DNA of 64,000 nt from Deinococcales bacterium (GTDB taxonomy: Bacteria; Deinococcota; Deinococci; Deinococcales; JAAFIG01), in contig JANNVX010000041.1 of the NCBI GenBank assembly GCA_031414595.1, positions 108,782-172,781 of the forward strand, written 5' to 3'. Shown here in pieces: positions 183 through 53,478 of this stretch (its first letter is position 1; each line of letters starts with the position of its first letter). The translations under genes and the position numbers were made by a program. The notes beneath the pieces were generated by a model. That model did not search any database and had not been told where the DNA came from. It saw only the letters and a program-made list of their open reading frames with translations.

Positions 183-244
183 GGGCAAGGCTTCTTGCCC
201 ATAAACGCGCACCTAACGGGCATGGTCGCATGCCTTGCCCCTAC
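183..244 (-). repeat. GTAG-type REP hairpin interrupted by a 38-nt mini-element (192-229)
   Basis: GGGCAAGGC|38-nt insert|ATGCCTTGCCCCTAC. Removing the insert restores a hairpin like the empty REP at 265-288. Confidence 0.85.
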
Positions 245-8516: not shown

Positions 8517-9536
8517 ATGCTAAGGTTACTTTTTTGGTTGCCGGCATTCTTACTCTCAAGCAATGCCGAAGCCCATGTCAAATGGTTTCATCAAGGAGAA
8601 CGACCGCCCTTTGATTGGCTGGCGGTTTTTTCGATGCCCAGCCTGATTTTTATTGTGGCGGTTGGTCTTACGGTGCTTGGTTTGTGGTTTTGGCAAGGCG
8701 CTCGAGGTGGAGCGGGTTTTATCCCTAACCTTGCGTGGTTTGGGGCGATTCCAGAACGACGCATGGCGTTGTACGGCTTAATTCCAGCCATTCTGGCAGT
8801 GCATTTTGCCGTGCCGCTTTTTGTTGCAAGTGTGCAGGGGAATTTATTTGCACCCGCCTTAAAACTACCGGGCGCTTGGGCGTATTTTATTGGTTTACTG
8901 CAAGCAGGCGTGGCACTGGCGCTTTTCTATGGTGGCTTCACTCGAGCCGCAGCCGTGGTATTGGCTTGGCTGTGGTTAGTGGGTATTGCTTTTGTTGGAC
9001 TCGAGGCAAGCCTAGATAATGCCCATGTGCTTGGTTTTGCGGTCTTTTTCTATTTGGCTGGGCGTGGTCCGATTGCGATTGACCGACTGATTTTAACCCG
9101 TTTTGAACCAACCCCAAACCTGATGCGTCATGCTGTGACCGCCCTAAGAATTGGGGTCGGGCTGGGTTTAATTGCTGCCGCCTTTACCGAAAAACTGGGC
9201 AATCCAATGCTGGCGCTTTCTTTTCTCGAGCAGCAACCCTTAAATTTTACAGCCGCCCTTGGTTTGCCAATTCCCAACGAACTTTTTTTGCGTTTTGCTG
9301 GCAGTGTCGAATTGTTGGTGGGCTTGTGTTTGGTCGCCAATGTCTTTACCCGTGAAATCATTGTGATTGCGTGGATTCCCCTAAATTTAACTTTAACGAT
9401 TTTTGATTGGAATGAATTGGTCGGGCATTTACCGATTTATGGGGCAATGGCGGTGCTGTTAATCTGGGAAAACTCGAGTCAGAATACCGAATTATGGTTG
9501 CGCGGACTGCGGGAAGGTCCTTTGCCGATTAAGTGA
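8517..9536 (+). CDS. DoxX-like multi-pass membrane protein
   Basis: AHVKWF after a signal-like segment, LRIGVG..LI..AFTEKL.NP, ELVGHLP; about 9 hydrophobic segments. Confidence 0.6.
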   Translation: MLRLLFWLPAFLLSSNAEAHVKWFHQGERPPFDWLAVFSMPSLIFIVAVGLTVLGLWFWQGARGGAGFIPNLAWFGAIPERRMALYGLIPAILAVHFAVPLFVASVQGNLFAPALKLPGAWAYFIGLLQAGVALALFYGGFTRAAAVVLAWLWLVGIAFVGLEASLDNAHVLGFAVFFYLAGRGPIAIDRLILTRFEPTPNLMRHAVTALRIGVGLGLIAAAFTEKLGNPMLALSFLEQQPLNFTAALGLPIPNELFLRFAGSVELLVGLCLVANVFTREIIVIAWIPLNLTLTIFDWNELVGHLPIYGAMAVLLIWENSSQNTELWLRGLREGPLPIK

Positions 9537-9584
9537 GCTATGAGCTTGAGGGTTAAACGGTTAAAGGGTGAAAAGGTTAAAGTT

Positions 9585-9752
9585 TTTCGCCTTTCGCCTT
9601 TCGCCTTTCGCCTTTCGCCTTTCGCCTTTCGCCTTTCGCCTTTTGCCTTTTGCCTTTTGCCTTTTGCCTTTTGCCTTTTGCCTTTTGCCTTTTGCCTTTT
9701 GCCTTTTGCCTTTTGCCTTTTGCCTTTTGCCTTTTGCCTTTTGCCTTTCGCC
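9585..9752 (+). repeat. Heptamer tandem array (TTTCGCC)8(TTTTGCC)15(TTTCGCC)1
   Basis: Read directly: 24 units, 168 bp, intergenic. Confidence 0.97.
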
Positions 9753-9812
9753 TTCCCTCTAAGCCATTTGATTTATTTGCAAAATGAAACTATTTTAGTT
9801 TAGAATAATCGC

Positions 9813-33512: not shown

Positions 33513-33574
33513 GTAGGGGCGAGGCTTCTTGATTCTAAACGCGCACCTGTCGGGCAGAATCGCATGCCTCGCCC
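33513..33574 (+). repeat. GTAG-type REP hairpin interrupted by a 38-nt mini-element (33526-33563)
   Basis: GTAGGGGCGAGGC|TTCTTGATTCTAAACGCGCACCTGTCGGGCAGAATCGC|ATGCCTCGCCC. Confidence 0.88.
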
Positions 33575-33614
33575 GCTAACGCAATCCATTTTGGTTTATT
33601 GCCATAGTCATTTT

Positions 33615-36807: not shown

Positions 36808-38348
36808 TGCGTTTAGGTCTTTACATTCCTTTTGCGGGTAAACCCGATGTGGCTGCCTCATCTCGAGCCTTAAATGCTGTTAAAGCCATGCGTGAACATC
36901 TGCTTGAGGGTATTACTGATATTATTCCAAGTTATTTGAATCTTTATTTTGAATTTGATACTCGAGTGACCACCAAAAAAGCTGTGCAGGATTGGGCATT
37001 GTCTTTTCTAAACCGTAGGGGTGGGGCTGTCTTGACCCTAAACACGCACCTGGCGGGCAGGGTCGCTTGCCTCGCCCAACCTAGCCAGTCCATAGAAATT
37101 CCAGTCCAGTACAACGGTCTTGACCTCGAGTTTATCGCCAAAAAAACAGGGTTGACCATCCCAGACATTATCCAAACCCACTCGAGCCATGTCTACCACG
37201 CTTTTGCCGTTGGTTTTACGCCTGGTTTTCCGTTTCTTGGTGTGTTACCGCCCCCTTTGCATTTGCCGCGTCGAGAAAACCCTCGAGCAAGAGTAGAGGC
37301 ACATTCGGTGGGGATTGCCATGGCGCAAACCGGTGTTTATCCGTTCTCGAGTCCGGGCGGTTGGCATCTGCTCGGTACTTCTGGTGTAGCAATGTTTGAC
37401 CCGCACCGAGAACCGCCATTCTGGGTGCAAGCGGGTGATGCCGTGCGTTTTGTGCCAGTCCAACAAGTACAAATCCCGACCCTCGAGTCAGTATCGTTGT
37501 TGCCACTCGAGCCAAAATTCCCAGTCTTAAAACTCGAGCAGGCGGGTTTGCAGACCTTGTTGCTCGATGCTGGGCGGGTACAGGTCGGTCATCTTGGTTT
37601 GGCGCAGTCGGGGGTACTTGACGCTAGAAGTGCGGCTCGAGCAAATGCCGTTGTGGGCAACGCAGCAGACGCGCCACTGCTCGAGCTAACCCTGCTTGGT
37701 GGGGTATTTACGGCACTGCGTGATGTGGTGCTTGGCTTTGCGGGGTACGGTATGAATCCAATTTTGAATGGTGAAATAATACCCGCCGCCTCGAGTTTTT
37801 TATTGCGCCGTGGACAAACCCTGTCTTTTAAGCCGAGCAGTACGGGGGTGCGTGGTTATTTGAGTGTCGCGGGTGGTTTTGAGGGCGTACCGATGTGGAA
37901 TAGTATCAGTTCAGATGCTCGGGCGAGTTTGGGGCGAGCTTTACAAGCGGGGGATGTGCTTGGGGCAAGGTTGCTTAAATCCGTCCGAGCAGGTTTTTAC
38001 CTATCACAACCGAGTCTCGAGCCTAGGGCTTTTCGACTTCTTCAAGGGGCGCAAGCCAATCCCGAGGCTTTTGTAGCCCTGACCAGTGCCAATTTTACGG
38101 TTGAAGGCGGCGACCGGATGGGTTTGCGTTTATCGGGGGCGTTGCTGGGTGGCGGTGATGTTCCCAGTGAAGCTACCCCGCTTGGTGCGGTACAAATCAC
38201 ATCTGGTGGGCAACCGATTATTTTGCTGCATGACCGTGGGCGGATGGGCGGCTACACCAAGCCAGCCGTGGTGCATCCAGCCGATTTATGGCGCTTAGCG
38301 CAACTGCGAGATGGTCAGGGTTTGCGATTCTCGAGATTTTTGCACTGA
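36807..38348 (+). CDS. Fused 5-oxoprolinase subunits B/C (carboxyltransferase domains)
   Basis: IPVQY, GFTPGFPFLG, YP..SPGGW.LLG (PxpB); LELTL.G, RGYLSVAGG, DRMGLRL, GAVQI...GQPI, GGY (PxpC). Confidence 0.88.
   Translation: MRLGLYIPFAGKPDVAASSRALNAVKAMREHLLEGITDIIPSYLNLYFEFDTRVTTKKAVQDWALSFLNRRGGAVLTLNTHLAGRVACLAQPSQSIEIPVQYNGLDLEFIAKKTGLTIPDIIQTHSSHVYHAFAVGFTPGFPFLGVLPPPLHLPRRENPRARVEAHSVGIAMAQTGVYPFSSPGGWHLLGTSGVAMFDPHREPPFWVQAGDAVRFVPVQQVQIPTLESVSLLPLEPKFPVLKLEQAGLQTLLLDAGRVQVGHLGLAQSGVLDARSAARANAVVGNAADAPLLELTLLGGVFTALRDVVLGFAGYGMNPILNGEIIPAASSFLLRRGQTLSFKPSSTGVRGYLSVAGGFEGVPMWNSISSDARASLGRALQAGDVLGARLLKSVRAGFYLSQPSLEPRAFRLLQGAQANPEAFVALTSANFTVEGGDRMGLRLSGALLGGGDVPSEATPLGAVQITSGGQPIILLHDRGRMGGYTKPAVVHPADLWRLAQLRDGQGLRFSRFLH
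37015..37077 (+). repeat. REP hairpin plus 39-nt mini-element (37028-37066), in frame inside pxpBC
   Basis: GTAGGGGTGGGGC|TGTCTTGACCCTAAACACGCACCTGGCGGGCAGGGTCGC|TTGCCTCGCCC. Confidence 0.85.
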
Positions 38349-52029: not shown

Positions 52030-52539
52030 CTATTGAATTGGATTACCAATAGCTCCACTGCACGACGCACCGAGTTCAGGTGTTTGCTTACCCTGCATGT
52101 AGGTACGAATAAATTTATCTAAGCGCTTGTCATCTGCCTTTTCTACGCCAACCCGCACGCCCCATGCCACCGCATAAATGGGTTTACTGAGCGCTCCAAA
52201 TGGTGAAGGACTGACCACGGTGTAAGCTCGACCTTTGACCAAATCACGAATTTTTTTAATCTCTTCTGCCGCTAAGTTGGGTTGATAAGTAATCCAAACT
52301 GCGCCATGTTCTAAACTATGCACTGCATTTTCGGCGGCAATTTGCGTTTCGTAAACACCACAATTTTGCCAACGCGGATTATGCTCACCACCGGTTGGTG
52401 GATAGGTTGGGTACGATAAACGCCCTTCTTTGTGTCCTTGTGTGACCGTAAAAGTCTCGAGTCCTTCGATGGTCATGTCTTCTGGGGCGCAAGCCGCAAG
52501 TAACAGACTTAAGGCGATGGGAATGAGTAGTTCCTTCAT
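52030..52539 (-). CDS. DUF3105-family lipoprotein
   Basis: Lipobox LAAC; PPTGGEH, CGVY, VHSLEHGAVWITY, AWG, PE.GA.C. Confidence 0.8.
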   Translation of the reverse strand: MKELLIPIALSLLLAACAPEDMTIEGLETFTVTQGHKEGRLSYPTYPPTGGEHNPRWQNCGVYETQIAAENAVHSLEHGAVWITYQPNLAAEEIKKIRDLVKGRAYTVVSPSPFGALSKPIYAVAWGVRVGVEKADDKRLDKFIRTYMQGKQTPELGASCSGAIGNPIQ

Positions 52540-52657
52540 AGCAGTATTTTACGCGATTATTGGTGTGTGGATTGTGTGCTATGGCTGTCGGTAAGCATCC
52601 TCGAGTTGGTCCAATACAAAAAGGCAAAGGGTTTTCTTTCGCCCTTTGCCCTTCGCC

Positions 52658-52814
52658 TTCTTGACCCTTAAAGCAGCACCTATCTTGACCACATACGCGC
52701 ACCTTCTTGCTCGTGGAATAGCACCTGTCGGGCTACTCGCGCTGTCGGGCGTGGTCGCTGACGGGCTTCTTGCTCACAAGACAGCACCTATCGGGCTGTT
52801 CGCGCTTGGGTCGC
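52658..52814 (+). mobile_element. Nest of four copies of the 38-40-nt mini-element
   Basis: Parses exactly as A[52658-80] B[52681-703] C[52704-42] B'[52743-58] A'[52759-66] D[52767-805] A''[52806-14]; mobility is inferred from the nesting. Confidence 0.7.
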
Positions 52815-53306
52815 TTACTTCTTAATTTCTTTAATCACATCATCGGACAAATCTGTGCCTTCAGGGTCGGCGTAAATCACCAAACCCGATTGACTGGCAA
52901 TGGCTCTATCCATGACCAGCACAAAGCCTTGGGCTTTGGCAACTTTACCAACTGCCGTATCTACTTGTTTGGTAATTGGCTCGAGCAACTTATCAATTTG
53001 GGTTTTTAAGGCAACCTGACGAGCTTGACCCGTTTTAACAAGGGTTTCGTACTGTTGGCGTTCGGTTGGTGTGGCTGTGTTATTGGCAATTTTGGCTTGC
53101 AGGGCTTGGACTTTATCAGAGAGTTCTTTTAGTTCGGCTTGGGCTTTTTTCTGAGCTTCAAGTACCTTAGAACCATTTGGATGCCCTGCCAAGACAACTT
53201 GGGCATTGACAAAACCAATTCTGGTGGCGCGGGTTTGTGCCATTGGCACAGTGAAAACAGCAGTTAAGGCAACGGCGGCAGCGATAGGTAATAATTTTTT
53301 CAACAT
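52815..53306 (-). CDS. skp: OmpH/Skp-family periplasmic chaperone
   Basis: Signal peptide, RIGFVN.Q.VL, coiled coil, VAK..GF.LV.D, YAD...DLSD.VIK. Confidence 0.8.
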   Translation of the reverse strand: MLKKLLPIAAAVALTAVFTVPMAQTRATRIGFVNAQVVLAGHPNGSKVLEAQKKAQAELKELSDKVQALQAKIANNTATPTERQQYETLVKTGQARQVALKTQIDKLLEPITKQVDTAVGKVAKAQGFVLVMDRAIASQSGLVIYADPEGTDLSDDVIKEIKK

Positions 53307-53478
53307 ACATTCCATCCTTTTGATTTCCCTCGAGTCTGGAGGGTTTTTATCTCGAGCCAAAGTATCATGAGACAAACCAGCCGCGTGAGGTAGCCGTGAA
53401 AAATGTGAAAGCTGGTACTTTTGATAGAGGAAATTGGTTGAATCCATAGTGGTTCTGAGCAGCTACGGTAAAAGTGGG

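Follow-up and report, generated by a model that had tools for sequence, protein, structure and literature searches.

How REP-type repeats spread is still called poorly understood (PMC8266576, in excerpt). TnpA(REP) transposases cut single-stranded REPs at C|T, either 5' or 3' of the hairpin, one of them cutting also at C|A, and recognize the tag 5' of the stem, irregularities within the stem and bases of the loop (PMC8266576, in excerpt). Some repeats linked to tnpA(REP) lack the GT[AG]G tag (PMC6006769, in excerpt), and REPs lying inside palindromes are mentioned in passing by Di Nocera et al. (PMC3733652, in excerpt). Natural insertions of single units have rarely been caught. The small dispersed repeats (SDRs) of Nostoc-type cyanobacteria are reportedly some 20-odd nucleotides long, inserted without duplication and found one inside another; we know of no enzyme that mobilizes them. 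Their description by Elhai et al. (2008) is cited in PMC3116915 and PMC2884548 (both in excerpt). For the Deinococcota, the literature we searched holds no description of the family reported below or of REP-like repeats, with the exception of the mosaic SNRs of Deinococcus radiodurans (PMC1978522, in excerpt).

Here we describe a 157-nt nest of small repeats from a Deinococcales genome. The nest is probably a stack of four copies of a REP-like, non-autonomous mobile hairpin of 38–40 nt, which targets loops and is presumably moved in trans by a Y1 HUH transposase.

The nest and its repeat family

The locus belongs to a metagenome-assembled genome (MAG) of a Deinococcales bacterium (G000; 4.49 Mb in 120 contigs, 47% G+C, 94% complete), whose nearest named relatives are metagenome bins also labelled Deinococcales bacterium. 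We analysed a stretch of 64,000 nucleotides from it, here called the window (contig C41:108782-172781); positions given without a contig are window positions. Two co-directional genes frame the locus on the minus strand: a skp/OmpH-like gene (52815..53447) and, downstream of the nest, a DUF3105 gene (52030..52539). The nest (52658-52814) abuts the skp stop codon (52815-52817), and its units lie on the strand opposite the two genes. Between the nest and the DUF3105 gene stands a terminator-like hairpin recognized by eye (52623..52650, minus strand), with 9-bp arms followed by a T run on the minus strand; judged likewise by eye, it is conserved in nest-free relatives. This hairpin is flanked by short runs of a 7-nt unit, GCCTTTC or GCCTTTT, which are recurrent landing sites of the element (TTCGCC|T). 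Longer intergenic runs of the same unit occur at C41:118314-118537 (window ~9533-9756) and in the skp spacer of the sister species G001 (L098).

Read directly, the nest resolves with zero remainder into four units on the plus strand, A of 40 nt and B, C and D of 39 nt each, which together make up its full span of 157 nt. The left part of A (52658..52680) comprises the 5' tag TCTTG, the 5' arm of the outer stem and the sequence up to GCACC. In the apical loop of A, at C|T, sits B (left part 52681..52703, right part 52743..52758), and in the apical loop of B, again at C|T, sits C (52704..52742), an intact copy of the type 2 subfamily. A resumes with the 3' half of its apical loop and its inner stem (52759..52766), is interrupted at CGGGC|T, where its inner 3' arm gives way to the outer one, by the intact type 2 unit D (52767..52805), and closes with the 3' arm of the outer stem and a terminal GC (52806..52814). 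All eight junctions read C|T on the plus strand.

The same nesting was recovered by a routine that had not been given the order. A profile HMM was trained on 74 uninterrupted genomic copies; intact copies were then excised in silico round by round, their flanks rejoined and the search repeated, partial hosts being accepted where they spanned the junction. Excision of C left B intact (33.2 bits), and excision of B and then of D left A intact (36.8 bits). The reconstructed units have counterparts elsewhere in the genome. Rejoined A recurs as one further exact, uninterrupted 40-mer on contig C106, and rejoined B has uninterrupted relatives at two mismatches (one) and at up to three (three). C has a copy at one mismatch, and D occurs four times exactly, itself included. 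Moreover, the window contains a 13-nt core motif six times, whereas 100 shuffles gave 1.06 on average and none of them reached six; the motif has 79 exact occurrences in the genome. Chance as the origin of this excess is excluded.

The preliminary description of this DNA had proposed the four-unit parse, the C|T junctions and a total of seven copies in the window. The parse stands on the direct reading, on the HMM excision and on the exact twin of rejoined A, and the junctions and the count are as it gave them. Beside the four copies in the nest there are three solitary ones, all on the plus strand: at 192..229 in the loop of a GTAG-type palindrome, at 33526..33563 in the loop of a REP palindrome of GTAG type, this copy having a compensated outer stem, and at 37028..37066 at the centre of another palindrome of the GTAG REP type.

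Short-read data agree with the assembled sequence. Public k-mer contigs from run X1, which may be the source of the genome, span 52450-52790 and 52778-53004 with 0 differences. A further sample of the same study, X3, covers 52450-52729, 52700-52749 and 52778-53004, also with 0 differences, and zero-difference pieces of the nest region are present in run X4, another sample of that study; for 52750-52777 no such piece is listed in X3 or X4. The extreme abundance of D-like sequence in these metagenomes, with a summed contig depth of 430-1540 over 52765-52806, causes the k-mer contigs to break within D. Partial-nest alleles, such as A only or A with B, are absent from the public k-mer contigs examined.

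The four units belong to a large family. The HMM finds 105 full-length copies in G000; with nests collapsed, there are 100 top-level and 17 nested copies, about 117 in total with 94 distinct sequences. Each begins with an unpaired, invariant 5' end, a T, an optional G or A and then TCTTG, in which four of the five TCTTG positions are identical in 94/94 distinct sequences. There follow a co-varying outer stem of 5–6 bp with an A-rich 5' internal loop, and an invariant inner stem-loop made up of GC, a bulged A, CC, a loop of 4–5 bases starting with T, and GGGC (GC(A)CC-TNNC-GGGC). The element terminates in CGC at its 3' end.

In the main subfamily (94 copies), the outer stem forms 5.35 of 6 possible Watson–Crick pairs, against 4.52 with shuffled partners. 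In this control the 3' arms were dealt to other copies, and the best of 1000 shuffles reached 4.87 pairs. Five versions of the stem are fully compensated. The second subfamily (type 2; 23 copies, C and D among them) has two conserved pyrimidine mismatches in the outer stem, adjoined by co-varying pairs. Judged from this pattern of substitution, the structure of the element is under selection. Folding energies, of single copies and of the whole nest alike, are no better than those of shuffled sequence (z -1.9 to +0.6), and what speaks for a structure is therefore the covariation, not the stability.

Although crudely called ORFs cover 88% of the genome, 79 of the 105 copies lie outside them. Relative to co-directional neighbour genes, 31 copies are in opposite and 22 in the same orientation, with no clear bias. 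The extragenic position and the lack of a clear orientation bias therefore favour an element acting at the level of DNA over an RNA gene. Rfam has no match at E<=10 to either strand of 52300-53100. A second compound nest, again three deep, is found at C86:41832-41987 (L230), where a type 2 copy holds a type 1 copy and is followed head to tail by another type 2 copy, which holds a type 1 copy that holds yet another.

The family is narrowly distributed. We searched 364 Deinococcota genomes with a sequence pattern, using the reversed pattern as a control. Within the same taxonomic family (f1, five genera), all 18 of 18 genomes contain the pattern, with 1-167 matches each, and the three genomes of genus g23, which is placed in another family, contain 11-39. 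The remaining 342 genomes searched have 0-3 matches each, like the reversed control. The pattern also turned up once each in at least 120 viral contigs of IMG/VR; these yielded no full-length HMM copy, the best scoring 17.8 bits over positions 1-31, and we treated them as chance matches.

Precise insertion into hairpin loops

The preliminary description had expected empty alleles in relatives. Indeed, in all seven same-genus genomes, compared by anchored extraction, the spacer between skp and DUF3105 lacks the nest. In G004 the spacer reads ...GCC|TTAC..., with both flanks of the nest joined exactly. This is an empty site, and it shows that A inserted between C and T, immediately behind the skp stop codon, without duplication. 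The spacer differs by 8-11 bases in some relatives, and in run X4 a contig from a strain of about 92% similarity skips 52660-52814. All four insertions of the nest postdate the split from the nearest sampled relatives.

The sister species G001 provides a second view of the same process. We compared 60 of its regions, round 67 of 69 pattern matches, with G000, leaving out the two matches at contig ends. Two clean filled/empty pairs emerged, neither with a target duplication and each with a one-base ambiguity at the boundary. In the first, a 38-nt unit sits in the loop of a GTAG palindrome (a REP) whose flanks are 100% identical between the two genomes; in the second, a 39-nt unit sits at CTC|TTAC. 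Whole units insert precisely and without target duplication.

Most of the remaining differences between G001 and G000 involve larger insertions, 120-335 nt long, which have inverted ends and duplications of 8-9 bp. These belong to a MITE whose GTAG palindromes hold the small element in their loops. The MITE itself measures about 200-245 nt, its inverted ends are of the AGAGCCTCCGAAAG type, and its target duplications span 8-9 bp. G001 carries it at L084, L051, L079 and L045, and the same sites are empty in G000 (C110, C114, C18 and C67). At least 16 of the G000 copies are passengers in this larger element, with its inverted ends and target duplications, and have been spread passively.

On these data the proposals of the preliminary description have fared well. 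It had suggested the serial insertion of a very small, non-autonomous element, with no target duplication beyond an ambiguity of 1–2 nt, and had looked to further genomic copies and to Rfam. The 105 full-length copies, the empty alleles in seven of seven relatives and the allele differences of exactly one unit all support serial insertion, and the two allele pairs confirm the absence of duplication; no described Rfam family claims the sequence. It had also remarked that B and C occupy the same site, GCACC^TG. This turns out to be general. Among the 17 nested insertions, 12 are in the apical loop at GCACC|T (five of them ambiguous by one T), three are at CGGGC|T between the two 3' arms, and two are elsewhere.

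All 17 nested copies in G000 have the orientation of their host copy. Since the family occupies about 0.1% of the genome, 17 of 117 insertions into the family itself amount, by simple arithmetic, to an approximately 140-fold excess.

Hairpin loops are also preferred outside the family. There are 72 distinct top-level contexts, and in 28 of them (39%) the insertion site falls within the loop of a perfect hairpin with at least 5 bp. The same is true of 5.6% of 20,000 random sites, 5.5% of random C|T sites and 9.7% of sites shifted by 14 nt. For 14 of the 28, the loop contributes exactly one base before the cut, a C. The result in G001 is the same (15 of 48 contexts). Overall, the base before the insert is C in 54/72 contexts of G000 and 40/48 of G001, and the base after it is T in 49/72 and 30/48, respectively, and otherwise mostly C or A; about a quarter of the sites are other than C|T.

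The target hairpins are mostly REP palindromes tagged with GTAG. G000 has 384 perfect hairpins following GTAG, which corresponds to 2.4% of GTAG sites, a control tag giving 0.83%. CCCCGT, CCCTGT, CATG and CTTGT are the main loops, on stems of several families (for example, window 33513-33577 and 37015-37080). The CATG loops (36 free) and CTTGT loops (19 free) are often occupied; the 163 CCCYGT loops are hardly occupied, though CCCTGT too contains C|T. Insertions fall between C and T, less often at C|A or C|C, and preferentially one base into a DNA hairpin loop. The target is the hairpin loop, not sequence alone: a hairpin, a C at the first position of its loop, and a cut after that C.

Every copy brings with it a fresh C|T loop, and the element therefore makes its own preferred target. 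The consequence is a series of Russian-doll nests, up to three deep. Because the 3' boundary of the element is again C|T, head-to-tail arrays of 39-nt units are formed as well. Arrays with an exact 39-nt period are found in relatives, in G010 (for example, C91:9541-9647 and C229:3958-4064), in G001 (C256:3969-4075) and in G003 (C1:26158-26291).

Mechanism and candidate enzymes

Precise ends, the lack of inverted ends and of duplications, strand-specific co-orientation, dependence on a hairpin and C|T boundaries are hallmarks of single-strand transposition by Y1 HUH enzymes, and therefore point to this type of chemistry. Movement would proceed via single-stranded DNA, with a Y1 HUH tyrosine transposase catalysing in trans. 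Such an enzyme would cut at the C|T on each side of the hairpin, releasing a fragment with T as its first base and C as its last, as in the element itself, and would join that fragment into a C|T exposed in the loop of another hairpin. At the present locus, A went into GCC|TTAC behind the stop codon of skp; B then entered the loop of A and C the loop of B, and D entered the 3' bulge of A.

G000 encodes two RAYT-like Y1 genes, both outside the window, whose products are 37% identical to each other. They score 39 and 28 bits against Pfam Y1_Tnp (cut-off 23), and both proteins retain the His-hydrophobic-His motif as well as the Tyr that adjoins an NP motif (motifs compared with those in PMC2817692, in excerpt). 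They are the best candidates, and the first to consider, for the enzyme that moves the element. Neither reaches the NCBIfam cut-off of 80 bits for REP-associated tyrosine transposases (62.9 bits; 36.4 and 33.7 in a six-frame search), and a PDB sequence search with the RAYT-like protein returns nothing at E<=0.01.

One of the two genes (C98:106767-107468) lies in the region C98:105348-108518 (L001), between ORFs whose translations resemble, by eye, the M and S subunits of a type I restriction system; its protein has a low-complexity insert in the linker. The other, RAYT-2 (C109:4189-4776), has a conserved position adjoining a gene that resembles, by eye, tryptophanyl-tRNA synthetase. In RAYT-2 and its counterparts in relatives (L030, L029, L031 and L034), the part of the reading frame that encodes the linker between the HUH and Tyr motifs contains GTAG palindromes. 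The in-frame palindrome of G015 also holds a 38-nt copy of the element, and in G003 and G006 a palindrome with the element is situated about 40 nt upstream of the RAYT-like gene.

The preliminary description had suggested a search for RAYT or Y1 HUH genes flanked by the element. The genes are there, but the flanking is not: in G000, no copy of the element lies within 5 kb of either RAYT-like gene. The repeats that flank RAYT-2, and even those inside it, are GTAG palindromes. Among 12 RAYT loci in relatives, 4 have a copy close to the gene or within it, always nested in a GTAG REP as a passenger.

It is possible, if doubtful, that the element is mobile and owes its movement to an enzyme that is not RAYT-like: an IS200/IS605 TnpA acting in trans, some other HUH nuclease, or an unrecognized recombinase encoded elsewhere or missing from the MAG. 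The RAYT-like genes of G000 have no physical association with the element, RAYT-2 being flanked by GTAG REPs instead, and RAYT homologues occur also in families without the element. Conversely, G005 (84% complete) has 53 copies by pattern match and no RAYT-like match; its Y1 genes are ordinary IS200-type TnpA only, one of them intact. G158 (95% complete in 5 contigs) has 11 pattern matches, and two queries, Pfam Y1_Tnp and the RAYT-2 protein, find no Y1 gene in it. Against a role for IS200-type enzymes, G000 lacks an ordinary TnpA of this type, a PF01797 search finding only the RAYT-like gene, and the flanks of the IS200-type genes in G005 and G157 bear no resemblance to the element. Moreover, cutting at C|T and C|A beside a hairpin is published RAYT behaviour (PMC8266576, in excerpt). 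G000 also has one TnpB-type gene. In G005, an IS200-type tnpA at C401:8645-9024 (L233) is interrupted by two copies of the element; the gene is in two pieces with stop codons, and copies are located between the pieces and at the start of the gene.

Our preferred reading remains that a Y1 HUH enzyme moves the element, the RAYT-like proteins being the first to consider; explanations of the nest that do without a mobile element do much worse. It is very unlikely that the nest has been kept for a local function between skp and DUF3105, as a structured RNA, an mRNA-stabilizing module or a terminator module, its repeat nature being secondary. Its position directly 3' of the skp stop codon and ahead of a terminator-like hairpin would suit such a role, and REPs are reported to affect mRNA stability and termination (PMC3733652, in excerpt). 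However, the nest is absent from this spacer in all seven same-genus genomes, the orientation of the family relative to genes shows no clear bias (31 versus 22), Rfam offers no match and the nest folds no better than its shuffles.

We give hardly any weight to the idea that the nest formed with no transposition at all, through slippage during replication, copying primed by a hairpin or gene conversion among neighbouring repeats. Slippage could yield the head-to-tail arrays of 39-nt period found in relatives, but the order of units here is nested, not tandem, and the four units come from different subfamilies, each within one to three substitutions or fewer of dispersed copies on other contigs. 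Single units with exact ends also distinguish close genomes at unrelated loci, and the site of the nest is empty in seven of seven relatives. An origin without transposition is strongly disfavoured. Equally little weight attaches to a faulty assembly of a repeat present in many copies in a metagenome bin, a misassembly that the abundance of D-like sequence and the breaks of k-mer contigs inside D might suggest, since the X1 contigs and the pieces in X3 and X4 match the assembly without a difference and similar nests exist at no fewer than 10 other loci and in other genomes.

Comparison with known systems

The element most resembles the REPs and REPtrons of E. coli, Stenotrophomonas and Marinomonas, with their RAYT enzymes (PMC8266576, PMC2817692 and PMC3733652, all in excerpt). 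Like the REPs of these excerpts, which measure 20-40 nt, it is small, has an unpaired conserved 5' tag followed by a hairpin with a co-varying stem and conserved irregularities, and is present in many copies, mostly extragenic and without target duplication. Its boundaries at C|T, and also at C|A, match the in vitro cleavage published in PMC8266576 (in excerpt), the junctions here being identified in silico. As in REPtrons, RAYT-like genes are present in the genome. Unlike REPs, however, the element carries the tag TCTT(G) in place of GTAG or CGTC, it is demonstrably inserted as single units, and it lands in hairpin loops, its own included, giving nests up to three deep. Unlike REPtrons, its copies are not found flanking a RAYT gene. 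Furthermore, G000 has a separate set of GTAG REPs, and it is these that resemble the cognate partners of the RAYT-like genes. In the way it works the element is like a REP, but it fails two features that define REPtrons, the GTAG tag and the flanking of a RAYT gene.

We tentatively suggest that the family represents a third class of REP-like DNA, tagged TCTT, in which a single 38-nt hairpin may transpose, a Y1 HUH enzyme may insert it at a C|T one base inside the loop of a single-stranded DNA hairpin, and each copy may make the next target. If true, this would supply a long-missing in vivo picture of REP-type spread, together with defined donor and target substrates for biochemistry. The family offers exact filled and empty alleles and 17 nested events in one genome, a target rule that can be quantified (C|T, with the C as first base of a hairpin loop), a host range limited to one uncultured Deinococcales family and one genus, and two candidate enzymes. 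It turns a vague idea into a model that can be tested at the bench with defined donors and loop targets. It is also a practical marker, because it breaks assemblies, interrupts genes, transposase genes included, and differs between close species. Its interest lies in an unusually clean natural record of singlet insertion and of the rule that governs the target.

REPINs (Bertels and Rainey, PMC3116915, in excerpt) are likewise non-autonomous hairpin elements that are thought to use RAYT and that form tandem clusters. There, however, the mobile unit is an inverted doublet and singlets are dead remnants (PMC3116915, in excerpt), whereas here it is a singlet of 38-39 nt that differs between alleles, and the nested copies are co-oriented in 17 of 17 cases. 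With IS200/IS605 elements and their miniature derivatives (PMC6006769 and PMC8266576, in excerpt) the family shares the lack of inverted ends and of target duplications, strand-specific insertion beside a short sequence and dependence on a hairpin. Those elements have two different subterminal hairpins and a fixed 5' target of 4-5 nt (same excerpts); ours has one hairpin and a C|T in a loop, and the ordinary resident TnpA that would be expected for an IS200/IS605-derived miniature element is absent from G000. Unlike a classical MITE, the element forms clean allele pairs without terminal inverted repeats or target-site duplication.

The SNRs of D. radiodurans, from the same phylum, are described as mosaic, modular and non-coding (PMC1978522, in excerpt). 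Set against that description, the element differs in distribution, its pattern being at background (0-3 matches) in the 342 Deinococcota genomes outside f1 and g23. The cyanobacterial SDRs belong to another phylum and have another sequence, and the element described here has a defined, co-varying hairpin and a loop-target rule that can be measured. The element is neither a classical MITE nor an IS200/IS605 derivative nor a REPIN.
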